A stretch of DNA of 64,000 nt from Escherichia coli (GTDB lineage Bacteria; Pseudomonadota; Gammaproteobacteria; Enterobacterales; Enterobacteriaceae), in NCBI RefSeq assembly GCF_024223415.1, contig NZ_CP100500.1, one strand, 5' to 3'. Both the position numbers and the translations under genes were made by a program. Positions 15,842-63,874 of the stretch are shown one piece after another (within the stretch, counting starts at the first letter, position 1; the number at the start of each line of letters is the position of its first letter). The notes beneath the pieces were generated by a model that saw only the letters and a program-made list of their open reading frames with translations, did not search any database and had not been told where the DNA came from.

Positions 15842-15990
15842 GCCTTATACGGACAACACCACCCCGTAGGACGGATAAGGCGTTTACGCTGCATCCGGCA
15901 ACCTATGCCTGATGCGACGCTGAAGCGTCTTATCATGCCTACATAGCACTGCCACGTATGTTTACACCGCATCCGGCATAAAAACACGCG
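15842..15990. repeat. REP/BIME cluster
   Basis: Multiple GCCGGATGCGGCG / CGCATCCGGC-type palindromic units. Confidence 0.7.
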
Positions 15991-24095: not shown

Positions 24096-24425
24096 GAATA
24101 TTTTTTGGTAAGCGTCAAATATGCGCTTTCTGGCTGTGCGTAGCCGGAACCTGTGGGAGCACGATGCCGATAAGTGAAAGGCATCGTGCTATGAAGGAGG
24201 ATTCTATCGATGTGGTCAATGGAAGACGGTTACCAGAGATAGGGCTTATGCATAAAAAAATAAGCCCGTGTAAGGGAGATTACACAGGCTAAGGAGGTGG
24301 TTCCTGGTACAGCTAGCATTTTATGGGTTATGTTTTTCAGCGAAACGGATGATAACCTTAATAAATGCAGCTGTATGTGATCGGTTTCTAAGAATTTTCC
24401 ATCCGGGAAAAATAATCGAAATTAA

Positions 24426-37669: not shown

Positions 37670-37810
37670 AACGGGAAAGCCCCTCCCGAGGAAGGGGCCT
37701 TAAATAAGGAAAGGGTCATGATGAAGCTACTCATCATCGTGGTGCTCTTAGTGATTAGCTACCCAGCATACTAAGACTACCAGGGCGGGGGAAACCCCGC
37801 TCTACCCTCA
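37670..37810 (-). ncRNA. Sib-family antisense sRNA (antitoxin), copy 1, approximate bounds
   Basis: On minus strand: -35 TTGACA (rc of 37839-37844) and -10-like CATACT downstream of ibs stop; hairpin GCCCCTCCCGAGGAAGGGGC at 37679-37699 as terminator; bounds inferred. Confidence 0.45.
37718..37774 (+). CDS. Ibs-family type I toxin peptide (MMKLLIIVVLLVISYPAY)
   Basis: 18-codon hydrophobic ORF with AAGG RBS, below six-frame track length cutoff; resembles IbsA-E peptides. Confidence 0.7.
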   Translation: MMKLLIIVVLLVISYPAY

Positions 37811-37997
37811 CTCCTGAAAGTATGCCTTCACGATAAGATTGTCAATCCGCAGGATTTGCCGTCTGCGATCCTGCCAGCAAAAATTCTTTGCGAGACGTTA
37901 CGCAATAATCACACTGGAAACTATTTTATCTGCAAGTCAGCGATAGACTAAGTGCATGGCGAAAGGAGGTAAGCCGACGATTTCAGCGGGACGCTGA

Positions 37998-38138
37998 AAC
38001 GGGAAAGCCCCTCCCGAGGAAGGGGCCTTAAATAAGGAAAGGGTCATGATGAAGCTACTCATCATCGTGGTGCTCTTAGTCATAAGCTTCCCCGCTTACT
38101 AAGACTACCAGGGCGGGGGAAACCCCGCTCTACCCTCA
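37998..38138 (-). ncRNA. Sib-family antisense sRNA, copy 2, approximate bounds
   Basis: Same promoter and hairpin elements as copy 1 within repeat 2. Confidence 0.45.
38046..38102 (+). CDS. Ibs-family type I toxin peptide (MMKLLIIVVLLVISFPAY)
   Basis: Second repeat copy, 18-codon hydrophobic ORF. Confidence 0.7.
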   Translation: MMKLLIIVVLLVISFPAY

Positions 38139-38327
38139 CTCCTGAAAGTATGCCTTCACGATAAGATTGTCAATCCGCAGGCTTTGTAGTCTGCGATCCT
38201 GCCAGCAAATATTCTTTGCGAGTCGTTACGCAATAATCACAGAGGAAACTATTTTATTCACGCGTTAGCGATAGCCTGCATTCAGGGCGAAAGGAGGTAA
38301 GCCGATGATTTCAGCGGGACGCTGAAA

Positions 38328-38470
38328 CGGGAAAGCCTCTCCCGGAGAAGAGGGCTTTTAATAAGGAAAGGGTTATGATGAAGCACGTCATCATACTGGT
38401 GATACTCTTAGTGATTAGCTTCCAGGCTTACTAAGAACACCAGGGGGAGGGGGAAACCTCTCCCTAACCC
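38328..38470 (-). ncRNA. Sib-family antisense sRNA, copy 3, approximate bounds
   Basis: Divergent copy; hairpin AGCCTCTCCCGGAGAAGAGGGCTTT at about 38335-38358. Confidence 0.4.
38375..38434 (+). CDS. Ibs-family type I toxin peptide (MMKHVIILVILLVISFQAY)
   Basis: Third, more divergent repeat copy, 19-codon hydrophobic ORF. Confidence 0.7.
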   Translation: MMKHVIILVILLVISFQAY

Positions 38471-38654
38471 TCACTCCTGAAATTATGTCACTCCGCCCTT
38501 AGTGTCAATCGACGGCTCTCCGTTCTTGCGAGGCGAATAGCAAAATTTTCTGCGCCGCCGGGCCTAATTCTGAAAGTTTCTTCGTTTGCTCTTATTTCAT
38601 TATTGCAGTCGGTATGATACCGGACCTCAATAATTCTCTAAGAAAGGATTTCTT

Positions 38655-49434: not shown

Positions 49435-51288
49435 ATGAGACGATTTCTGACGACGCTGATGATACTCCTGGTCGTGCTGGTGGCCGGGTTATCTGCGTTA
49501 GTGTTGCTGGTGAATCCGAATGATTTCCGCGACTATATGGTCAAGCAAGTTGCTGCACGTAGCGGTTATCAATTGCAGCTCGACGGGCCACTGCGTTGGC
49601 ACGTCTGGCCGCAGCTTAGTATCCTCTCCGGGCGAATGTCTCTCACCGCCCAGGGCGCAAGCCAGCCACTGGTTCGCGCCGACAACATGCGTCTGGACGT
49701 GGCGCTTTTACCACTACTGAGTCATCAACTGAGCGTTAAGCAGGTGATGCTAAAAGGGGCAGTGATCCAACTGACGCCGCAGACGGAAGCGGTGCGCAGT
49801 GAAGACGCTCCGGTTGCACCGCGCGACAATACCTTGCCGGATCTGTCAGACGATCGCGGATGGTCGTTTGATATATCCAGTCTTAAGGTGGCGGACAGCG
49901 TTCTGGTGTTCCAGCATGAAGATGACGAGCAGGTGACAATCCGCAATATCCGCCTGCAAATGGAACAAGATCCCCAACATCGTGGCTCATTTGAGTTTTC
50001 TGGGCGGGTTAATCGCGATCAGCGCGATCTCACGATATCCCTTAACGGTACGGTAGATGCTTCTGATTATCCGCATGATTTAACGGCGGCTATTGAACAA
50101 ATTAACTGGCAGTTGCAGGGTGCCGATTTACCAAAACAAGGTATTCAGGGGCAGGGGAGTTTCCAGGCCCAGTGGCAGGAGTCACATAAACGCCTTTCAT
50201 TTAACCAAATCAGCTTGACCGCCAATGACAGTACGCTGAGCGGGCAAGCACAGGTTACGCTGACAGAGAAACCGGAATGGCAGCTGAGGCTGCAATTCCC
50301 GCAACTGAATCTTGACAACCTCATCCCGCTTAATGAAACAGCGAATGGTGAAAACGGTGCCGCGCAGCAGGGGCAGAGCCAATCAACGTTGCCGCGCCCG
50401 GTTATTTCTTCGCGTATTGATGAACCGGCCTATCAGGGACTGCAAGGCTTTACGGCTGATATTTTGTTGCAGGTCAGTAACGTGCGCTGGCGCGGAATGA
50501 ATTTTACAGATGTTGCCACGCAAATGACCAACAAGTCGGGTTTGCTGGAAATTACTCAACTGCAGGGCAAGCTTAACGGTGGACAGGTTTCACTGCCGGG
50601 CACGCTGGACGCGACATCAATAAATCCGCGGATAAACTTCCAGCCACGGCTGGAAAACGTTGAGATTGGTACCATTCTGAAGGCGTTTAACTATCCGATT
50701 TCGTTGACCGGAAAAATGTCACTGGCTGGTGATTTCTCCGGTGCTGACATAGATGCCGACGCATTCCGCCACAACTGGCAAGGACAGGCACATGTCGAAA
50801 TGACCGACACGCGCATGGAAGGGATGAACTTCCAGCAGATGATTCAGCAAGCGGTAGAGCGTAATGGCGGTGATGTGAAGGCCGCTGAAAACTTTGATAA
50901 CGTGACGCGGCTTGACCGCTTTACCACCGATTTGACGTTGAAGGATGGCGTCGTGACGTTAAACGACATGCAAGGTCAATCGCCTGTGCTGGCGCTGACA
51001 GGGGAAGGCATGTTGAATCTGGCAGATCAAACCTGCGACACCCAGTTTGATATTCGGGTCGTGGGTGGCTGGAACGGGGAAAGCAAACTGATTGATTTCC
51101 TGAAAGAAACGCCAGTACCGCTGCGGGTTTATGGCAACTGGCAGCAACTCAATTACAGCCTGCAAGTGGATCAGTTACTGCGCAAACATCTACAGGACGA
51201 AGCGAAACGTCGCCTGAATGACTGGGCCGAGCGGAATAAAGATTCCCGTAATGGCAAAGATGTGAAGAAGTTGCTTGAGAAGATGTAG
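49435..51288 (+). CDS. asmA: outer-membrane assembly protein AsmA
   Basis: 617 aa, N-terminal TM anchor. Confidence 0.95.
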   Translation: MRRFLTTLMILLVVLVAGLSALVLLVNPNDFRDYMVKQVAARSGYQLQLDGPLRWHVWPQLSILSGRMSLTAQGASQPLVRADNMRLDVALLPLLSHQLSVKQVMLKGAVIQLTPQTEAVRSEDAPVAPRDNTLPDLSDDRGWSFDISSLKVADSVLVFQHEDDEQVTIRNIRLQMEQDPQHRGSFEFSGRVNRDQRDLTISLNGTVDASDYPHDLTAAIEQINWQLQGADLPKQGIQGQGSFQAQWQESHKRLSFNQISLTANDSTLSGQAQVTLTEKPEWQLRLQFPQLNLDNLIPLNETANGENGAAQQGQSQSTLPRPVISSRIDEPAYQGLQGFTADILLQVSNVRWRGMNFTDVATQMTNKSGLLEITQLQGKLNGGQVSLPGTLDATSINPRINFQPRLENVEIGTILKAFNYPISLTGKMSLAGDFSGADIDADAFRHNWQGQAHVEMTDTRMEGMNFQQMIQQAVERNGGDVKAAENFDNVTRLDRFTTDLTLKDGVVTLNDMQGQSPVLALTGEGMLNLADQTCDTQFDIRVVGGWNGESKLIDFLKETPVPLRVYGNWQQLNYSLQVDQLLRKHLQDEAKRRLNDWAERNKDSRNGKDVKKLLEKM

Positions 51289-51580: not shown

Positions 51581-53164
51581 TCACACCTCGTACTCCATCT
51601 CGCCATCCTTACGCAGCGGTATAATCTGCACCTTCTGCACGCGATGGCTTTCTACCTGCAACGTTTTAAGCAAATAATCCCCCACCTGAACTTCTTCGCC
51701 AGGTTTTGGAATACGCTGCAAATACTCCATCAACAGCCCGGCAATGGTGTGATATTCACGTTTTTCATCCAGCGGCAGCGGCACATATTGCACCAGATCC
51801 TCCAGCGGCATATGACCATTCGCCGTCCAGGAACCGTCCGCATTCTTCTGAATATCATGGCGGGCGTCGATCTCTTCCACTTCGTTCGGTAAGTTACCGG
51901 CAATGGTTTCAGTGACGTCACTTAATGTCACAATCCCTTCCACCGAGCCAAACTCATCCACCACAAAAGCAAAGTGCGTGCGGGCATTACGGAACTGCTC
52001 CAGGGCAGGTAACAACGGCAAGGTTTCCGGGAACACCAGCGGCTGGCGAATCAACACCCGCAGGTTGAGCGGTTCGCCGCGCAGAGACTGTTGTAGCAGG
52101 TCGATAACGTGAACAACACCGAGCAAATCTTCTGCGTCATCACCGTCGGTAACCACCAGCCGCGTATGCTGATTTCGCTCCAGCAACTGGCGGATCTCGT
52201 CTTCCGGCGCGTTGAGATCGATATGCTCAATATCGTGGCGCGACGTCATAATGCTGCTGACGGTACGCTGGTTAAGATTTAGTACCCGCTCAATCATCCG
52301 CCGTTCCTGCGGATTAAAGATCTGCTGGTTACCATGATCCACCAGCATGGACGCGGTTTCGGCGTCCAGTTCCGCATCTTCTTTTTGCCCGCTAAGCAGG
52401 CGCATTACCGCTTCGGTAGTCCGCTGGCGCAGCGTCTGGTTAGCGGAAAGAAAACGTCGCCGGTTAAAGATAGCCAACTGATTGAGCGCCTCGATCATCA
52501 CCGAGAAACCAATGGCAGCGTACAGGTAGCCTTTCGGAATGACGAAGCCGAAACCTTCTGCCACCAGGCTAAAGCCAATCATCAACAGGAAGCTTAAGCA
52601 GAGAATAACGATCGTCGGGTGACTGTTAACAAATTGCGTTAACGGCTTGCTGGCCATCAACATCAGGCTGATAGCGATAACCACGGCGGCCATCATGACC
52701 AGTAAATGGTCGACCATCCCGACGGCGGTAATCACTGAGTCGAGTGAGAAAATGGCGTCCAGTACCACAATTTGCGTCACCACGCCCCAGAACTTCGCAC
52801 CTTTGCGTTGTGTGGGATTATTGCTGTCTTTCCCTTCCAGCCGTTCGTTCAGCTCCATCGTGGCTTTGAACAACAGGAAGAAACCACCAAACAGCATGAT
52901 TAAGTCGCGGGCGCTAAAGGTAAACGAGCGGAAGCTGAACAGCGGTTGAGTCAGGGTGACCAGCCAGGAGATTGACGCCAGCAGTAACAGGCGCATTAAC
53001 ATTGCCAGCAGCAGCCCGGTAACCCGTGCGCGGTCACGCTGCTTCGGCGGTAGTTTTTCGGCGAGGATGGCAATAAAGACCAGGTTATCAATGCCGAGGA
53101 CCAGTTCGATCACAATCAGCGTGATTAACCCGGCCCAGATAGACGGATCGGCAATCCATTCCAT
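51581..53164 (-). CDS. yegH: TerC-family membrane protein with CBS and CorC domains
   Basis: Start at [13 protein letters not shown] giving 527 aa. Confidence 0.9.
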
Positions 53165-53632
53165 AGTAAGTACAAAACCTATTCGTTGTATGACAAATGT
53201 CACAATTCGATCATGGATAAATCGGGGCAAAAATGCAATGTTGCAGCACTATTTATCTCATATTATTTGAGGGTAATAACCTCACATTATCCCTGAATTA
53301 AAAGTGGTAATAATAAAACATTATTTAAGAAATATCGCATGTGGAGGCGCAATATTAAATATTGTCAACCTAAAGAAACTCCTAAAAACCATATTGAATG
53401 ACACTTAATATAATTCTTAAAAATAGCCAATTGCCGAATTGTTACCTTGCCTGCTATTCCGTTAGCTGTAACACTTCCTCCTGCATTATTGGAGAGCCAA
53501 TATTCAATTACCATAATGTCACCTTATATTCGGAAGTTAATTTCCGCAATAACCCTTTCTCATCAACGATTGTATGCAGAGAGGGTTTGAAAAATTAAGC
53601 TAAATCAGTGTATTGGTAGCTAAAAAGCCAGG

Positions 53633-53644
53633 GGCGGTAGCGTG
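53633..53644 (+). promoter_or_regulatory. ops element (GGCGGTAGCGTG) / JUMPstart, RfaH recruitment site in cps leader
   Basis: Exact ops consensus in long AT-rich leader about 180 bp upstream of wza. Confidence 0.75.
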
Positions 53645-53822
53645 TCTGGATGCCTGAAAGACCAGTCTGAATTATTCTGTCAATAGCCTGCGGATGAAAT
53701 CAATTTTTTTAGGACTGATGCCAGTTAAATTTGTATTCAATTAACTGCAAGGTAAATGTGCATGGCGACATTGCTATTAATAGTGCACAGGATAATTACT
53801 CTGCCAAAGTGATAAATAAACA

Positions 53823-54962
53823 ATGATGAAATCCAAAATGAAATTGATGCCATTATTGGTGTCAGTAACCTTGATAAGCGGTTGCACAGTACTTCCGGGC
53901 AGCAATATGTCGACGATGGGCAAAGACGTCATCAAACAGCAGGACGCTGATTTCGATCTCGACAAAATGGTGAATGTTTATCCGCTGACCCCGCGCCTGA
54001 TTGACCAATTACGCCCACGCCCGAATGTAGCGCGCCCCAATATGACGCTGGAAAGTGAGATCGCGAATTACCAGTATCGCGTCGGGCCGGGCGACGTTCT
54101 GAATGTCACCGTCTGGGATCACCCGGAACTCACCACGCCAGCCGGTCAGTACCGCAGCTCCAGCGACACCGGCAACTGGGTACAGCCTGACGGCACTATG
54201 TTTTACCCGTATATCGGCAAGGTCCACGTAGTCGGGAAAACGCTCGCTGAAATCCGCAGTGATATTACCGGGCGCTTAGCGACGTACATCGTTGACCCGC
54301 AGGTGGATGTTAATATCGCCGCCTTCCGCTCGCAAAAGGCCTATATCTCAGGTCAGGTGAATAAATCCGGTCAACAGGCGATCACCAACGTACCACTGAC
54401 CATTCTCGACGCCATCAACGCCGCAGGTGGCCTGACCGACACCGCTGACTGGCGCAACGTGGTGCTAACACACAATGGTCGTGAAGAACGCATTTCTTTG
54501 CAGGCGCTGATGCAAAACGGCGACCTCAATCAGAACCGACTGCTTTACCCCGGCGATATTCTCTACGTGCCGCGTAATGATGATCTGAAAGTGTTTGTGA
54601 TGGGTGAAGTGAAGAAACAGAGCACCCTGAAAATGGACTTTAGCGGCATGACCCTGACTGAAGCCCTGGGCAATGCCGAAGGTATCGACATGACCACCTC
54701 CAACGCCAGCGGCATCTTTGTCATTCGTCCGCTGAAAGGCGAGGGCGGGCGTAACGGCAAGATTGCCAATATCTACCAGCTGGATATGTCCGATGCCACG
54801 TCGCTGGTGATGGCGACAGAATTCCGCCTGCAACCTTATGACGTGGTGTATGTCACCACCGCCCCGGTTTCCCGCTGGAACCGTCTGATCAATCAGTTGC
54901 TGCCAACTATTAGCGGTGTCCGTTACATGACGGATACAGCCAGCGACATTCATAACTGGTAA
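53823..54962 (+). CDS. wza: outer-membrane polysaccharide export lipoprotein
   Basis: 379 aa; lipobox ISGC. Confidence 0.95.
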
Positions 54963-54967
54963 TCGTC

Positions 54968-55411
54968 ATGTTTAACAACATCTTAGTTGTCTGTGTCGGC
55001 AATATTTGCCGTTCCCCGACGGCGGAACGCTTACTGCAACGTTATCACCCGGAGCTGAAAGTGGAGTCCGCTGGACTCGGCGCGCTGGTCGGTAAGGGCG
55101 CTGATCCTACCGCTATCAGCGTCGCCGCAGAACATCAACTGTCTCTGGAAGGTCACTGTGCCCGTCAAATCAGCCGCCGTCTGTGTCGCAACTACGACCT
55201 GATTTTGACCATGGAAAAGCGCCATATCGAACGCTTATGCGAGATGGCACCGGAGATGCGCGGCAAAGTGATGCTGTTTGGTCACTGGGATAACGAATGT
55301 GAAATCCCCGATCCGTATCGCAAAAGCCGGGAAACGTTTGCAGCGGTGTACACATTACTTGAACGGTCTGCCCGCCAGTGGGCGCAGGCATTGAACGCAG
55401 AGCAGGTATAA
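54968..55411 (+). CDS. wzb: low-molecular-weight protein-tyrosine phosphatase
   Basis: 147 aa; CVGNICRS P-loop. Confidence 0.95.
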   Translation: MFNNILVVCVGNICRSPTAERLLQRYHPELKVESAGLGALVGKGADPTAISVAAEHQLSLEGHCARQISRRLCRNYDLILTMEKRHIERLCEMAPEMRGKVMLFGHWDNECEIPDPYRKSRETFAAVYTLLERSARQWAQALNAEQV

Positions 55412-55413
55412 GA

Positions 55414-57576
55414 ATGACAGAAAAAGTAAAACAACATGCCGCTCCGGTAACGGGCAGTGATGAAATCGATATTGGTCGCCTGGTCGGCACCGTCATTGAA
55501 GCGCGCTGGTGGGTGATTGGCATCACCACCGTATTCGCCCTCTGTGCCGTGGTTTACACCTTCTTCGCCACGCCGATTTATAGTGCCGACGCACTGGTAC
55601 AAATCGAGCAAAACAGCGGCAATTCGTTAGTGCAGGACATTGGTTCGGCATTAGCCAACAAACCGCCTGCATCGGACGCCGAGATCCAGTTGATTCGTTC
55701 GCGTCTGGTGCTTGGTAAAACGGTGGACGATCTCGACCTCGATATTGCAGTGAGCAAAAACACGTTCCCGATTTTCGGTGCGGGCTGGGATCGCCTGATG
55801 GGACGTCAGAACGAGACGGTGAAAGTGACCACCTTTAACCGCCCGAAAGAGATGGCGGATCAGGTGTTTACGCTTAATGTGCTGGACAACAAAAACTACA
55901 CCCTGAGCAGCGACGGCGGCTTTAGCGCCCGGGGGCAAGCGGGCCAGATGCTGAAAAAAGAAGGCGTCACGCTGATGGTTGAAGCCATTCACGCCAGCCC
56001 GGGCAGTGAGTTTACCGTCACCAAATACTCCACGCTGGGGATGATCAACCAACTGCAAAACAGCCTGACGGTAACGGAGAACGGCAAAGACGCTGGCGTT
56101 TTGAGCCTGACTTATACCGGTGAAGATCGTGAACAGATCCGCGACATTCTTAACAGCATCGCCCGTAACTATCAGGAACAAAATATTGAGCGCAAATCGG
56201 CGGAAGCGTCGAAAAGCCTCGCCTTCCTCGCGCAACAGTTACCGGAAGTACGTAGCCGCTTGGATGTTGCCGAAAACAAACTGAATGCCTTCCGTCAGGA
56301 TAAAGATTCTGTTGATCTGCCGCTGGAAGCAAAAGCGGTGCTCGATTCGATGGTGAACATCGATGCGCAGTTGAACGAACTGACCTTTAAAGAGGCGGAA
56401 ATCTCCAAGCTGTACACCAAAGTTCACCCGGCGTACCGCACGCTGCTGGAGAAACGTCAGGCGCTGGAAGACGAAAAAGCCAAACTTAACGGTCGCGTAA
56501 CGGCGATGCCGAAAACCCAGCAGGAGATTGTCCGTCTGACCCGCGATGTCGAGTCTGGTCAGCAGGTCTATATGCAACTGCTGAATAAAGAGCAGGAGCT
56601 GAAAATCACCGAGGCCAGCACCGTCGGCGATGTGCGCATTGTTGACCCGGCAATCACTCAGCCTGGCGTGCTGAAACCGAAGAAAGGGCTGATTATCCTT
56701 GGGGCGATTATTCTTGGCCTGATGCTCTCTATCGTGGGTGTGCTGCTGCGCTCGTTGTTTAATCGTGGCATCGAAAGCCCGCAGGTGCTGGAAGAACACG
56801 GTATCAGCGTCTATGCCAGCATCCCGTTGTCGGAATGGCAGAAAGCGCGCGATAGCGTCAAAACCATCAAAGGAGTTAAACGCTATAAACAGAGCCAGCT
56901 ACTGGCGGTGGGGAATCCAACCGATCTGGCGATTGAAGCCATCCGCAGTCTTCGTACCAGTTTGCACTTCGCGATGATGCAGGCGCAGAACAATGTGTTG
57001 ATGATGACCGGGGTTAGCCCGTCAATCGGTAAAACCTTTGTCTGCGCCAACCTGGCGGCGGTGATCAGCCAGACCAATAAACGGGTGTTGTTGATCGACT
57101 GCGATATGCGCAAAGGCTACACCCACGAGCTGTTGGGCACCAATAACGTCAATGGCCTGTCGGAAATTCTGATTGGTCAGGGCGATATTACTACCGCTGC
57201 TAAACCCACTTCGATTGCCAAATTTGACCTGATCCCGCGCGGTCAGGTACCGCCAAATCCTTCTGAACTGTTGATGAGCGAACGCTTTGCCGAACTGGTG
57301 AACTGGGCGAGTAAAAACTACGACCTGGTGTTGATTGATACGCCGCCGATTCTGGCAGTGACCGATGCGGCAATTGTTGGTCGTCATGTCGGAACCACGT
57401 TAATGGTGGCGCGTTATGCGGTCAACACATTGAAAGAAGTGGAAACCAGTCTGAGCCGCTTTGAGCAAAATGGTATTCCGGTGAAAGGGGTGATTCTGAA
57501 CTCCATCTTCCGCCGCGCCAGCGCGTATCAGGATTATGGCTATTACGAATACGAATATAAGTCGGATGCGAAATAA
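55414..57576 (+). CDS. wzc: tyrosine autokinase / polysaccharide co-polymerase
   Basis: Start MTEKVKQHAAP (720 aa); Walker A and C-terminal Tyr-rich tail YYEYEY. Confidence 0.95.
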   Translation: MTEKVKQHAAPVTGSDEIDIGRLVGTVIEARWWVIGITTVFALCAVVYTFFATPIYSADALVQIEQNSGNSLVQDIGSALANKPPASDAEIQLIRSRLVLGKTVDDLDLDIAVSKNTFPIFGAGWDRLMGRQNETVKVTTFNRPKEMADQVFTLNVLDNKNYTLSSDGGFSARGQAGQMLKKEGVTLMVEAIHASPGSEFTVTKYSTLGMINQLQNSLTVTENGKDAGVLSLTYTGEDREQIRDILNSIARNYQEQNIERKSAEASKSLAFLAQQLPEVRSRLDVAENKLNAFRQDKDSVDLPLEAKAVLDSMVNIDAQLNELTFKEAEISKLYTKVHPAYRTLLEKRQALEDEKAKLNGRVTAMPKTQQEIVRLTRDVESGQQVYMQLLNKEQELKITEASTVGDVRIVDPAITQPGVLKPKKGLIILGAIILGLMLSIVGVLLRSLFNRGIESPQVLEEHGISVYASIPLSEWQKARDSVKTIKGVKRYKQSQLLAVGNPTDLAIEAIRSLRTSLHFAMMQAQNNVLMMTGVSPSIGKTFVCANLAAVISQTNKRVLLIDCDMRKGYTHELLGTNNVNGLSEILIGQGDITTAAKPTSIAKFDLIPRGQVPPNPSELLMSERFAELVNWASKNYDLVLIDTPPILAVTDAAIVGRHVGTTLMVARYAVNTLKEVETSLSRFEQNGIPVKGVILNSIFRRASAYQDYGYYEYEYKSDAK

Positions 57577-57597
57577 CGACGCCTGCATTCGCACCGC

Positions 57598-57636
57598 CCC
57601 GTAGGCCGGATAAGGCGCTCACGCCGCATCCGGCAA
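57598..57636. repeat. REP element
   Basis: GCCGGATAAGGCG ... CGCATCCGGC palindrome. Confidence 0.65.
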
Positions 57637-57668
57637 GTAAACCAGCTCATAAGCCGGGAGTACAACCT

Positions 57669-58508
57669 ATGAAAGACAATCCGCTGATCTCAATCTATAT
57701 GCCAACCTGGAACCGCCAACAACTGGCGATTCGGGCAATAAAATCGGTTTTGCGCCAGGACTACAGCAACTGGGAGATGATCATCGTGGATGATTGCTCC
57801 ACCTCCTGGGAACAACTGCAACAGTACGTCACCACCCTCAACGATCCGCGTATCACTTACATTCACAACGACATTAACAGCGGGGCGTGCGCGGTACGTA
57901 ACCAGGCGATTATGCTGGCGCAAGGGGAATACATCACCGGGATCGATGATGATGATGAATGGACACCCAACCGTCTGAGCGTCTTCCTCGCCCATAAACA
58001 GCAACTGGTCACTCACGCCTTTTTGTACGCTAACGACTACGTTTGCCAGGGCGAAGTCTATTCCCAACCAGCAAGTTTGCCGCTGTATCCCAAATCGCCG
58101 TATTCACGCCGCCTGTTCTATAAACGCAATATCATTGGCAATCAGGTCTTTACCTGGGCGTGGCGTTTCAAAGAGTGTTTGTTCGATACCGAACTGAAAG
58201 CGGCACAGGATTACGACATCTTCCTGCGGATGGTGGTGGAGTATGGCGAACCGTGGAAAGTGGAAGAGGCGACGCAGATCCTGCATATCAATCACGGTGA
58301 AATGCAGATCACCTCGTCACCGAAAAAATTCTCCGGATACTTCCACTTTTACCGCAAGCACAAAGACAAATTCGACCGCGCCAGCAAAAAATATCAGCTG
58401 TTTACCCTCTACCAGATCCGCAATAAACGCATGACCTGGCGCACTTTGCTGACGCTGCTGTCGGTGCGTAACGGCAAACGTCTGGCTGATGGTATTCGGG
58501 GGCGCTAA
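57669..58508 (+). CDS. wcaA: colanic acid glycosyltransferase (GT2)
   Basis: 279 aa, operon position. Confidence 0.9.
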   Translation: MKDNPLISIYMPTWNRQQLAIRAIKSVLRQDYSNWEMIIVDDCSTSWEQLQQYVTTLNDPRITYIHNDINSGACAVRNQAIMLAQGEYITGIDDDDEWTPNRLSVFLAHKQQLVTHAFLYANDYVCQGEVYSQPASLPLYPKSPYSRRLFYKRNIIGNQVFTWAWRFKECLFDTELKAAQDYDIFLRMVVEYGEPWKVEEATQILHINHGEMQITSSPKKFSGYFHFYRKHKDKFDRASKKYQLFTLYQIRNKRMTWRTLLTLLSVRNGKRLADGIRGR

Positions 58509-58510
58509 AG

Positions 58511-58999
58511 ATGCTGGAAGATCTGCGCGCCAACAGCTGGAGTTTACGCCCGTGCTGCATGGTTCTTGCCTATCGCGTCGCTCATTTTTGTTCGGTGTGG
58601 CGCAAAAAGAACGTCCTCAACAATCTGTGGGCGGCCCCGCTGCTGGTGCTGTATCGCATTATCACCGAATGCTTTTTCGGTTATGAAATCCAGGCTGCCG
58701 CGACCATTGGCCGCCGCTTTACTATCCATCACGGTTACGCCGTAGTGATCAATAAAAACGTGGTAGCGGGGGATGATTTTACCATTCGCCACGGCGTCAC
58801 TATCGGCAATCGTGGTGCCGATAACATGGCATGTCCACACATTGGCAACGGCGTCGAACTCGGTGCCAACGTCATTATTCTTGGTGATATCACGCTTGGT
58901 AACAACGTCACCGTGGGCGCGGGTAGCGTGGTGCTCGACTCTGTCCCGGACAACGCGCTGGTGGTGGGAGAAAAAGCGCGAGTGAAGGTAATTAAATGA
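58511..58999 (+). CDS. wcaB: colanic acid acetyltransferase (hexapeptide repeat)
   Basis: 162 aa left-handed beta-helix repeats. Confidence 0.9.
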   Translation: MLEDLRANSWSLRPCCMVLAYRVAHFCSVWRKKNVLNNLWAAPLLVLYRIITECFFGYEIQAAATIGRRFTIHHGYAVVINKNVVAGDDFTIRHGVTIGNRGADNMACPHIGNGVELGANVIILGDITLGNNVTVGAGSVVLDSVPDNALVVGEKARVKVIK

Positions 59000-60213
59000 A
59001 TATTTTGCAATTTAATGTGCGACTGGCGGAAGGCGGGGCAGCAGGTGTGGCGTTAGATCTCCACCAGCGTGCGCTGCAACAGGGGCTGGCGTCACATTTT
59101 GTCTACGGTTACGGCAAAGGCGGCAAAGAGAGTGTCAGCCATCAAAACTATCCGCAGGTCATCAAACATACGCCGCGGATGACTGCAATGGCGAATATTG
59201 CCCTGTTTCGTCTGTTTAATCGCGATCTGTTTGGCAATTTCAATGAGTTATATTGCACCATTACTCGTACACCGGGTCCGGTGGTCCTGCATTTTCATGT
59301 GCTGCACAGCTACTGGCTAAATCTTAAGAGCGTGGTGCGCTTTTGCGAAAAGGTGAAAAACCACAAACCGGATGTCACTCTGGTCTGGACGCTGCACGAC
59401 CACTGGAGTGTAACCGGACGCTGCGCCTTTACCGACGGTTGCGAAGGCTGGAAAACGGGCTGCCAGAAATGCCCGACCTTAAATAACTATCCGCCGGTGA
59501 AGATTGATCGGGCGCACCTGCTGGTGGCGGGCAAACGCCAGTTATTCCGTGAGATGCTGGCGCTGGGCTGTCAGTTTATTTCCCCCAGCCAGCATGTGGC
59601 TGACGCTTTCAATAGCCTGTACGGTCCAGGGCGTTGCCGGATTATCAATAACGGTATTGATATGGCAACCGAAGCGATTCTGGCGGATCTGCCTCCGGTG
59701 CGCGAAACTCAGGGCAAGCCGAAAATCGCGGTGGTGGCGCATGACCTGCGTTACGACGGCAAGACTAACCAGCAACTGGTGCGTGAGATGATGGCGCTGG
59801 GCGACAAAATTGAACTGTATACCTTTGGTAAGTTCTCGCCGTTCACCGCTGGCAACGTGGTTAATCACGGCTTTGAAACTGACAAGCGCAAGTTGATGAG
59901 CGCGCTCAATCAGATGGATGCGCTGGTGTTCAGTTCTCGCGTCGATAACTACCCGCTGATTTTGTGTGAGGCGTTATCAATTGGCGTGCCGGTGATTGCC
60001 ACCCATAGCGACGCGGCGCGTGAAGTGTTGCAAAAATCCGGCGGTAAAACCGTCAGCGAAGAAGACGTGCTGCAACTGGTCCAGTTAAGCAAACCGGAAA
60101 TCGCGCAGGCGATATTTGGTACCACGCTGGCTGAGTTCAGCCAACGCAGCCGCGCGGCCTACAGTGGACAACAGATGCTGGAGGAGTATGTCAACTTCTA
60201 TCAGAATCTGTAG
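58996..60213 (+). CDS. wcaC: colanic acid glycosyltransferase (GT1)
   Basis: 405 aa. Confidence 0.9.
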   Translation: MNILQFNVRLAEGGAAGVALDLHQRALQQGLASHFVYGYGKGGKESVSHQNYPQVIKHTPRMTAMANIALFRLFNRDLFGNFNELYCTITRTPGPVVLHFHVLHSYWLNLKSVVRFCEKVKNHKPDVTLVWTLHDHWSVTGRCAFTDGCEGWKTGCQKCPTLNNYPPVKIDRAHLLVAGKRQLFREMLALGCQFISPSQHVADAFNSLYGPGRCRIINNGIDMATEAILADLPPVRETQGKPKIAVVAHDLRYDGKTNQQLVREMMALGDKIELYTFGKFSPFTAGNVVNHGFETDKRKLMSALNQMDALVFSSRVDNYPLILCEALSIGVPVIATHSDAAREVLQKSGGKTVSEEDVLQLVQLSKPEIAQAIFGTTLAEFSQRSRAAYSGQQMLEEYVNFYQNL

Positions 60214-61405
60214 CTACCTGCTGCTGCCGCTGATCTACCTGCTGGTTAACGTCAAAATCGCCCAGCTTGGCGAAAGTTTTCCCATCACCATCGTCACTTT
60301 TTTACCTGTCTTGTTACTGCTGTTTTTAGAACGCATCAGCGTTAAAAAATTGATGATTGCCTTAGGGATTGGCGCGGGACTCACGGCGTTTAACTACCTG
60401 TTTGGTCAGTCGTTGGATGCCAGTAAATACGTCACTTCAACCATGCTGTTTGTCTATATTGTGATCATTATTGGCATGGTGTGGAGTATTCGCTTTAAAA
60501 CGATTTCGCCACACAACCATCGTAAGATATTACGTTTCTTTTATCTGGTGGTCGGGCTGGTGGTGGCGCTGGCGGCGGTGGAGATGGCGCAAATTATCCT
60601 CACCGGTGGCAGCAGTATTATGGAGTCGATTTCGAAATATCTGATTTACAGCAATAGCTATGTGCTGAATTTCATCAAATTCGGCGGCAAGCGCACGACA
60701 GCACTTTATTTCGAACCGGCATTTTTCGCTCTGGCATTAATCTCAATTTGGCTCAGCATCAAACAGTTTGGTATCAAAACGCCTAAAACCGATGCTATGA
60801 TTCTCGCAGGGATAATATTATCCGGATCGTTTTCAGGGGTTATGACCTTTATCCTGTTTTATTTGCTGGAGTGGGCATTTCAATATCTGAATAAAGAGGC
60901 GATTAAGAAAAAGTTACCGTTAGCATTGATTTCTCTGGCTGTATTCCTGGTTGGTGTGGTAATCGCGTTTCCTTATATTTCCACCCGTCTGGGCGATTTA
61001 GGTACGGAAGGATCGTCATCGTATTATCGTATTGTCGGTCCGCTGGTGATGGTCGGTTATTCTTTGACCCATATTGACGGTGTAGTCAGATTTGGCTCAC
61101 TTTATGAATATGTTGCATCATTCGGAATATTTAACGGTGCGGATGTCGGAAAAACCATAGACAATGGTTTGTATCTGCTGATTATTTATTTTTCCTGGTT
61201 CGCGGTGTTTTTATCGCTGTGGTACATGGGGAAAGTGATAAAAATGATGATCAACGCTTTTGGTGATAACCGCAATTTTCGCGTGCAATTATATCTTTTT
61301 ACTCCGGTATCGCTGTTTTTTACCGGTTCGATATTTAGCCCGGAATATGCATTTTTAATCGTCTGTCCGTTTATTTTTCGAAAAGCGTTAAATATTACGA
61401 GGTAA
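60188..61405 (+). CDS. wcaD: colanic acid polymerase
   Basis: Start at [19 protein letters not shown]; polytopic membrane protein. Confidence 0.85.
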
Positions 61406-61415
61406 GAATAAGAAC

Positions 61416-62162
61416 ATGTTGCTTAGCATAATCACTGTCGCGTTTCGTAACCTCGAAGGGATAGTCAAAACACATGCCTCGCTGGCGCATCTGGCGCAGG
61501 CGGACGATATCAGCCTCGAATGGATTGTTGTCGATGGCGGTTCCAACGACGGTACCCGTGAGTATCTGGAAAATCTCAATGGTATCTATAATCTACGCTT
61601 TGTCAGCGAGCCAGATAACGGTATCTACGACGCCATGAACAAAGGCATTGCGATGGCACAAGGCAAGTTCGCGTTGTTTCTCAACTCGGGCGATATTTTT
61701 CATCAGGATGCCGCAAATTTTGTCCGTAAGTTAAAAATGCAAAAAGATAACGTGATGATCACCGGCGATGCGCTGCTGGATTTTGGCGACGGGCATAAAA
61801 TTAAGCGTAGCGCCAAACCGGGTTGGTATATTTATCACAGCCTGCCCGCCAGTCATCAGGCGATATTTTTCCCGGTATCCGGCTTGAAGAAATGGCGTTA
61901 TGACCTGGAATATAAAGTTTCTTCCGACTACGCGCTGGCGGCCAAAATGTATAAAGCCGGTTATGCATTTAAAAAACTCAATGGCCTGGTGTCTGAATTT
62001 TCCATGGGTGGGGTATCTACCACCAATAATATGGAATTGTGTGCTGACGCGAAAAAAGTCCAACGGCAAATATTACATGTGCCTGGCTTTTGGGCTGAAT
62101 TATCCTGGCATTTACGCCAACGTACTACCTCAAAGACGAAAGCCTTATATAACAAAAGCTGA
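61416..62162 (+). CDS. wcaE: colanic acid glycosyltransferase (GT2)
   Basis: 248 aa. Confidence 0.9.
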
Positions 62163-62177
62163 ATATAAGGGAAAACG

Positions 62178-62726
62178 ATGCAAGATTTAAGCGGTTTCTC
62201 GGTGCCGAAAGGGTTCCGGGGTGGCAACGCTATTAAAGTGCAATTGTGGTGGGCAGTACAGGCAACATTATTTGCCTGGTCGCCACAAGTATTGTATCGC
62301 TGGCGGGCATTTTTATTACGTTTATTCGGGGCAAAAATAGGAAAAAACGTAGTTATTCGTCCGTCAGTAAAAATTACCTATCCGTGGAAATTAAACTTAG
62401 GTGATTACGCGTGGGTCGGCGATGAGGTCAATTTATATACCCTCGGTGAAATAACCATTGGCGCACATTCGGTGATATCGCAAAAAAGTTATTTATGCAC
62501 CGGGAGCCACGACCATGCAAGTCAACATTTCACCATTAACGCCACGCCTATTGTGATTGGCGAGAAATGCTGGCTGGCAACCGATGTCTTTGTTGCCCCA
62601 GGCGTCACAATCGGCGACGGCACCGTCGTGGGTGCACGAAGCAGTGTTTTTAAATCGCTTCCGGCAAATGTGGTTTGCCGGGGGAATCCCGCAGTGGTGA
62701 TACGCGAACGCGTTGAAACTGAATAA
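62178..62726 (+). CDS. wcaF: colanic acid acetyltransferase (hexapeptide repeat)
   Basis: 182 aa. Confidence 0.9.
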   Translation: MQDLSGFSVPKGFRGGNAIKVQLWWAVQATLFAWSPQVLYRWRAFLLRLFGAKIGKNVVIRPSVKITYPWKLNLGDYAWVGDEVNLYTLGEITIGAHSVISQKSYLCTGSHDHASQHFTINATPIVIGEKCWLATDVFVAPGVTIGDGTVVGARSSVFKSLPANVVCRGNPAVVIRERVETE

Positions 62727-62752
62727 ATTCAAAAAATACAGAGGAATAAGAC

Positions 62753-63874
62753 ATGTCAAAAGTCGCTCTCATCACCGGTGTAACCGGACAAGACGGTTCT
62801 TACCTGGCAGAGTTTCTGCTGGAAAAAGGTTACGAGGTGCATGGTATTAAGCGTCGCGCATCGTCATTCAACACCGAACGCGTGGATCACATTTATCAGG
62901 ATCCGCACACCTGCAACCCGAAATTCCATCTGCATTATGGCGACCTGAGTGATACCTCCAACCTGACGCGCATTTTGCGTGAAGTGCAGCCGGATGAAGT
63001 CTACAACCTGGGCGCAATGAGCCACGTTGCGGTTTCTTTTGAGTCACCGGAATATACCGCTGACGTCGACGCGATGGGTACGCTGCGCCTGCTCGAGGCG
63101 ATCCGCTTCCTCGGTCTGGAAAAGAAAACCCGTTTCTATCAGGCTTCCACCTCTGAACTGTATGGTCTGGTGCAGGAAATTCCGCAGAAAGAAACCACGC
63201 CGTTCTACCCGCGATCTCCGTATGCGGTCGCCAAACTGTACGCCTACTGGATCACCGTTAACTACCGCGAATCCTACGGCATGTACGCCTGCAACGGTAT
63301 TCTCTTCAACCATGAATCCCCGCGCCGTGGCGAAACCTTCGTTACCCGCAAAATTACCCGCGCAATCGCCAACATCGCCCAGGGGCTGGAGTCGTGCCTG
63401 TACCTCGGCAATATGGATTCCCTGCGTGACTGGGGCCATGCCAAAGACTACGTAAAAATGCAGTGGATGATGCTGCAACAGGAACAGCCAGAAGATTTCG
63501 TTATCGCGACCGGCGTTCAGTACTCCGTACGTCAGTTCGTGGAAATGGCGGCGGCACAGCTGGGCATCAAACTGCGCTTTGAAGGCACGGGCGTTGAAGA
63601 GAAGGGCATTGTGGTTTCCGTCACCGGACATGACGCGCCGGGCGTTAAACCGGGTGATGTGATTATCGCCGTTGACCCGCGTTACTTCCGTCCGGCTGAA
63701 GTTGAAACGCTGCTCGGCGACCCGACCAAAGCGCACGAAAAACTGGGCTGGAAACCAGAAATCACCCTCAGAGAGATGGTGTCTGAAATGGTGGCTAATG
63801 ACCTCGAAGCGGCGAAAAAACACTCTCTGCTGAAATCTCACGGCTACGACGTGGCGATCGCGCTGGAGTCATAA
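62753..63874 (+). CDS. gmd: GDP-mannose 4,6-dehydratase
   Basis: 373 aa; SDR Rossmann motif [10 protein letters not shown]. Confidence 0.95.

Follow-up and report, generated by a model that had tools for sequence, protein, structure and literature searches.

JUMPstart, the 39-bp element of Hobbs and Reeves, and ops have been known from published work on the colanic acid (cps/wca) operon of Escherichia coli since the 1990s. At ops, RNA polymerase pauses and a small hairpin of the non-template strand is recognized by RfaH, which from then on accompanies the elongation complex instead of NusG and lowers both pausing and Rho-dependent termination. Ribosomal protein S10 can be bound by the refolded C-terminal domain of RfaH. 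In the other operons controlled by RfaH (rfb/wzx for O antigen, waaQ/rfaQ for the LPS core, kps for group 2 capsule, hlyCABD, and tra), ops likewise lies on the non-template strand in a leader, ahead of many genes that together specify a surface structure, and the 12-mer GGCGGTAGCGTG reported below is also present at wzx, rfaQ, and tssH in strain CFT073 (PMC9765446). The distance from ops to the first gene is 71 nt at wzx and 60 nt at tssH of CFT073, compared with 190 nt in the locus analyzed here. Unlike rfa and rfb, which are active in rich medium, cps has a promoter that is ordinarily silent and requires activation by Rcs (PMC9765446). Group 1 capsule loci (K30 and Klebsiella K antigens) have homologous wza-wzb-wzc export genes together with JUMPstart and RfaH, and their JUMPstart is located between galF and wzi (PMC6128206); here, in contrast, the element is located between yegH and wza, wzi is absent, and the operon ends in wcaM. 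Transcription of cps has been described as dependent on JUMPstart and RfaH (PMC9976346), and such control is also stated in PMC3101779. RfaH was reported to be needed for the genes downstream of wzc, and elsewhere the same paper says "presumably cps" (PMC3673037).

The stretch of E. coli DNA analyzed here (the window, 64 kb) contains asmA (+ strand, 49435-51288) and yegH (− strand), followed by wza, wzb, and wzc (+ strand). An ops sequence, GGCGGTAGCGTG, is present at 53633-53644 as an exact 12-mer on the + strand, as the sequence-only reading of this DNA had claimed. It agrees with the 12-nt consensus GGCGGTAGnnTG, is carried by the non-template strand (the same strand as wza), and is intergenic, outside coding sequence, at 190 nt from the wza ATG. 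It was the sole match in the window even when one mismatch was allowed; a simple calculation gives ~0.008 exact chance occurrences of a 12-mer in the 128 kb of two-strand sequence. The ops sequence forms the 3′ end of a 39-nt JUMPstart element (53606-53644, + strand) that matched Rfam family RF01707 over its full length (model positions 1 to 38 of 38), scoring 57.3 bits where the gathering threshold is 35, with an E value of 2.5e-12. A scan of the whole window (E = 1.6e-10 for this element) gave no second JUMPstart, and no other Rfam family was found in 53000-54000 at E values up to 1. Very probably, this is the JUMPstart/ops of the E. coli colanic acid operon, where the element is already known, ordinary, and expected. 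The pause is presumably at T11 of ops (53643), which, from established RfaH/ops biochemistry, we take to be the loading point of RfaH.

Comparison with the K-12 wza leader, which had been proposed as a check, revealed a JUMPstart identical to that of K-12 BW25113. The supplementary table for CFT073 lists GGCGGTAGCGTG at 190 nt upstream of wza, i.e., the same sequence and the same distance as in the window (PMC9765446), so that the element itself does not differ from that of either strain. The 43 nt at 53606-53648 were shared without change by 4140 complete E. coli genomes, and 448 more had a single base difference. Relatives of Wza were searched with one genome per species, which yielded 80 loci (79 with upstream sequence) from Escherichia, Citrobacter, Salmonella, Enterobacter, Lelliottia, Kosakonia, Phytobacter, Franconibacter, Atlantibacter, Trabulsiella, Cedecea, Buttiauxella, and other genera. 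Of the 79 loci, 74 had the core GGCGGTAG upstream of wza. Its distance from the wza ATG was 186 to 199 nt in 73 loci with the exact core and in one locus with a single substitution (74/79); the latter, Citrobacter sp. On2M (L006), has the G2-to-A ops variant GACGGTAGCGTG (about 2312). In Citrobacter amalonaticus S646 (L048), ops was found at 308 nt from the ATG, the variable part of the leader between ops and wza having gained 118 nt by an insertion that is probably a repeat element. The ops/JUMPstart was missing from the leader (about 2130-2474) in three species of the Pseudescherichia vulneris group (L031, L038, and L040), which keep the promoter, the other leader blocks, and wza. The upstream region of one locus (L073) had diverged; it was counted among the 79 and assigned to neither the ops-bearing nor the ops-less set. 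The ops core was kept in 75/79 loci, one of them with the single substitution; mutation of ops in functional homologues was what would have told against the earlier reading.

In an alignment of 67 loci, ops and the 3′ half of JUMPstart had a mean identity to the window of 0.90 to 0.94, compared with 0.03 to 0.4 for the neighboring leader, in which flanking stretches had diverged to 20 to 40% identity. This contrast points to selection on the element itself, not to recent shared ancestry. The element is present, exact, on the correct strand, nearly constant in position, and deeply conserved. That ops would be a chance 12-mer in intergenic DNA is hardly conceivable: one-mismatch matches did arise in 24 of 100 shuffles, but the match in the window is exact and lies within a full 39-nt JUMPstart (E = 2.5e-12), and this explanation is already refuted by the correct strand and by the position conserved across genera. 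In some lineages the element is dispensable, because three species of the P. vulneris group are without ops and one Citrobacter species carries GACGGTAGCGTG.

JUMPstart contains a 5-bp stem, in which 53613-53617 pairs with 53627-53631. This stem was recovered by RNAalifold (54 sequences), its bases being nearly invariant across genera, and Rfam places JUMPstart, with this stem, among the cis-regulatory RNAs. Both observations would fit selection of the upstream half of JUMPstart for the role of an RNA stem-loop (in processing, stability, or protein binding) instead of for recognition of ops at the DNA level. We consider this explanation unlikely. No compensatory changes were found in the stem among the 54 sequences, in which changes were one-sided only (U-G to U-A); moreover, the ops 12-mer was the most strongly conserved part of the element (0.94 mean identity), and RfaH occupancy at the wza ops has been published (PMC9765446). 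A role of the RNA stem and the role of ops in RfaH recruitment are mutually compatible.

Start codons were taken from the RefSeq annotation of identical or ~98%-identical genomes and are at 53164 for yegH and at 53823 for wza. With yegH starting at 53164, the intergenic region comprises 53165-53822 (658 bp) and contains the cps (wza) promoter, activator sites, and the leader. The sequence-only reading had described it as an AT-rich untranslated region of ~590 bp between yegH and wza. Its AT richness was borne out, with a GC content of 0.31 to 0.40 over 53100-53900 versus 0.51 to 0.60 in yegH and wza, which is consistent with H-NS binding. Its length was not: the left edge of 53230 used in that reading marks where a TTG-extended ORF ends. 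Nor is the region one single, wholly untranslated leader, because an Rcs-dependent promoter and activator sites are located within it; the transcribed leader would be ~400 nt. Of 5426 complete E. coli genomes, 4818 had the 658-bp region, several of them with 100% identity. The region of K-12 BW25113 was 98% identical, and none of the 13 differences (of 658 positions) fell in JUMPstart, the RcsAB-like boxes, or the −10 block. At 80% coverage, 608 of the 5426 genomes (~11%) were without the region, and one E. coli genome had a copy on a plasmid. Immediately 5′ of the yegH start codon, a conserved block (53185-53240; e.g., GATCATGGATAAAT) was found, which presumably is the yegH promoter or 5′ untranslated region and which had no Rfam match on either strand. 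In one locus (L083, NZ_CP024134.1), an IS1A insertion (420-1117, corresponding to about 53235-53245 of the window) separates yegH from the RcsAB-box-like sites, and the same insertion was found in NZ_CP142044.1. A 49-aa ORF on the − strand (53365-53514), which overlaps the wza promoter and is annotated by PGAP as a "hypothetical protein" in many E. coli genomes (WP_162829205.1), was rejected as spurious, since just one of 67 relatives has it intact and a stop interrupts it in another E. coli genome.

Candidate activator sites were compared by eye with the RcsAB box consensus, TaAGaatatTCctA, taken from two papers. The distal site, TAAGAAATATCGCA (53328-53341, + strand), has 6 of the 6 capital positions of the consensus and is conserved in most genera as TA(A/G)GA(A/T)ATATCGCA. 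Closer to the promoter, the conserved block TTGTCAACC-TAAAGAAACTCCTA-AAAA (53362-53388, + strand) includes a further RcsAB/RcsB-box-like site (53370-53383), which has 5 of the 6 capital positions and is likewise conserved across genera. Both are candidate RcsAB boxes, and either could be the published wza box; Wehland and Bernhard reportedly defined the RcsAB box at the K-12 wza promoter in 2000, including binding by RcsA-RcsB and its requirement for activation. Further downstream, a perfect −10 hexamer, TATAAT (53409-53414, + strand), is located within the conserved block CTTAATATAATTCTTAAAAA (53404-53423), which had a mean identity of 0.81 to 0.88 across the 67 loci. Reading of the sequence upstream of this hexamer gave no usable −35 hexamer, as is expected for an activator-dependent promoter. 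The conserved RcsAB-like sites, in combination with a TATAAT that has no −35 hexamer, point to an activator-dependent promoter at which transcription would start near 53421, placing ops at about +212. The transcription start of cps (wza) is said to have been mapped by Stout in 1996. The single match of a sigma-70 scan (53490-53517) was set aside, since it lies in a poorly conserved stretch, unlike the conserved TATAAT at 53409-53414. With a start near 53421, ops would be inside the wza transcript, which agrees with the published sigma-70 and RfaH ChIP signals at wza.

The start of the colanic acid operon occupies 53823-63874 (+ strand) of the window, with wza, wzb, wzc, wcaA, wcaB, wcaC, wcaD, wcaE, wcaF, and gmd as uninterrupted ORFs. 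Gene names were taken from a genome with a 100% identical intergenic region, in which wza to wcaM comprise 20 genes in ~22.8 kb; the operon thus extends past the end of the window, to wcaM. The regulatory architecture, earlier described as intact, is so for the content of the window (wza, wzb, wzc, wcaA to wcaF, and gmd being uninterrupted); rfaH lies outside the window. No convincing intrinsic terminators were found within the part of the operon covered by the window, in which 10 terminator-like sites were counted compared with 13 expected from shuffles. The barrier overcome by RfaH is thereby more likely to be Rho or H-NS dependent, and most likely it is one of these, not a hairpin terminator, that is antiterminated in the cps operon. 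The only notable hairpin-forming sequence in this part of the operon was a REP-like palindromic element, GCCGGATAAGGCGCTCACGCCGCATCCGGC, in the gap of 92 nt between wzc and wcaA (57577-57668), which may act as a partial terminator or as an mRNA-stabilizing hairpin between wza-wzb-wzc and the biosynthetic genes. In the genome of a close relative, wzc and wcaA are 177 nt apart.

In E. coli CFT073 with hns and stpA deleted (Δhns ΔstpA), an RfaH ChIP-seq signal was observed at the wza ops that was absent in ΔrfaH (PMC9765446). In wild-type CFT073, the wza promoter was covered by H-NS and silent, the RfaH signal appearing only after the loss of both hns and stpA, and in other RfaH operons, RfaH enables polymerase to progress through H-NS filaments (PMC9765446). 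The exact ops, the identity to K-12, the near-fixed distance to wza, and these ChIP data support the earlier reading of RfaH-dependent antitermination of the colanic acid operon, in which RfaH would load at ops and carry RNA polymerase through the ~23-kb wza-wcaM operon. In the mechanism that we propose, transcription would start near 53421, at an Rcs-activated, H-NS-silenced promoter downstream of the two RcsAB-box-like sites. About 210 nt into the leader, the polymerase would pause at ops (53633-53644), and RfaH would bind the exposed non-template strand. RfaH would then move with the polymerase to the exclusion of NusG, suppressing pausing, Rho-dependent termination, and H-NS blocks to elongation, and may also aid ribosome loading at the weak wza start site. 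The outcome would be expression of all 20 genes of the ~23-kb operon once the promoter fires. The start site, the pause position, and the share of each of the downstream effects in the cps operon are those that we infer.

The absence of ops from an otherwise conserved leader in the P. vulneris group, the G2-to-A variant in one Citrobacter species, the silence of the promoter under standard conditions, and the lack of an evident intrinsic terminator in the window part of the operon would also be compatible with ops being a relic, with colanic acid expression set at initiation (by RcsAB and H-NS) and RfaH adding nothing measurable. This we hold to be very improbable. Of 79 species, 74 keep both the sequence of ops and its distance to wza although the flanks have diverged, which argues for ongoing selection. 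In addition, a 2014 paper in FEBS Letters reportedly found that RfaH promotes cps expression. That paper, on RfaH control of colanic acid synthesis in E. coli K92, is among the references of PMC9765446, according to which RfaH is recruited at the wza ops when the promoter is active. The capsule operon of this strain retains its known control region, the coordinates of which are now fixed for annotation.

Besides ops, four leader blocks on the + strand had a conservation equal to that of ops, with 75 to 99% identity over many genera of Enterobacteriaceae, whereas the sequence between them had diverged. The first, an early-leader block at 53445-53482, had a mean identity of 0.73 to 0.92 per 10-nt bin, was retained in the species without JUMPstart, and showed no three-base periodicity in its conservation. 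Two late-leader blocks, ATTATTCTGTCAAT (53671-53684) and TTTTTAGGACTGATGCCAGTTAAATTT (53706-53732), reached 0.92 to 0.94 in their core bins, and an inverted repeat, CAGTTAA-N12-TTAACTG, was found at 53722-53747. The fourth comprises the 38 nt directly 5′ of the wza start codon, GCACAGGATAATTACTCTGCCAAAGTGATAAATAAACA (53785-53822), and is the near-invariant translation initiation region (0.88 to 0.99). All but the block at 53671-53684 survive in the P. vulneris lineage that lost JUMPstart. The Shine-Dalgarno sequence of wza is weak; its anti-Shine-Dalgarno pairing energy, −2.3 kcal/mol, falls in the weakest 18% when 50 ORFs of the window are compared. This fits, but does not test, the proposal of RfaH-aided ribosome recruitment. 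For the four blocks, an Rfam match, covariation, and a conserved ORF were all absent. It is possible, albeit doubtful, that the leader holds regulatory information beyond ops and that these blocks form an undescribed cis-regulatory element of wza. They could serve as a translation initiation region independent of Shine-Dalgarno pairing, as a target of an sRNA or protein, or, at the inverted repeat, as the site of a DNA-binding regulator. The blocks are the sole part of the locus that may hold something undescribed; with them, the constrained parts of the leader across genera are now recorded, and the PGAP call of the 49-aa gene is exposed as spurious.

Several candidates for function in the leader were rejected. 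A structured RNA downstream of ops was not supported, as RNAalifold (54 sequences) yielded no structures other than the JUMPstart stem and a weak hairpin at ops, and a single-sequence fold of the leader was no better than that of shuffled sequences (z = −0.27). In the predicted fold of the full-leader alignment, ops RNA (53636-53648) paired with 53788-53805, and 53719-53731 formed a hairpin with 53739-53749. In both cases the pairs were invariant or changed on one side only; the hairpin had no compensatory covariation, and 53797-53805 was also kept in leaders without ops. Two + strand ORFs (53398-53598 and 53447-53590) were dismissed as leader peptides, codon periodicity being absent from their conservation, and so was an 8-codon ORF (53718-53744), whose ATG was missing from 11 of 63 sequences. 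Because the start regions of wza and ompF are similar, pairing of MicF with that of wza was predicted as well. The duplex (−18.5 kcal/mol, compared with −27.4 kcal/mol for ompF) was equaled by just 11 of 1000 shuffles, but it was set aside as weak, being no better than third among 50 start regions in the window.

Elsewhere in the window, other RNA elements were identified. SIB RNAs are the antitoxin RNAs of the Ibs/Sib type I toxin-antitoxin pairs, and three tandem SIB RNA genes (Rfam RF00113, 142 to 150 bits) were found on the − strand, at 37703-37845, 38031-38173, and 38360-38508. K-12 presumably has two SIB genes at the corresponding locus, so strains appear to differ in the number of copies. 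A match to the repeat-derived naRNA4 (RF02564, 64.5 bits) was located at 15869-15939 on the + strand, and the sRNA CyaR (RF00112, 100.7 bits) was located at 24258-24343 on the − strand.
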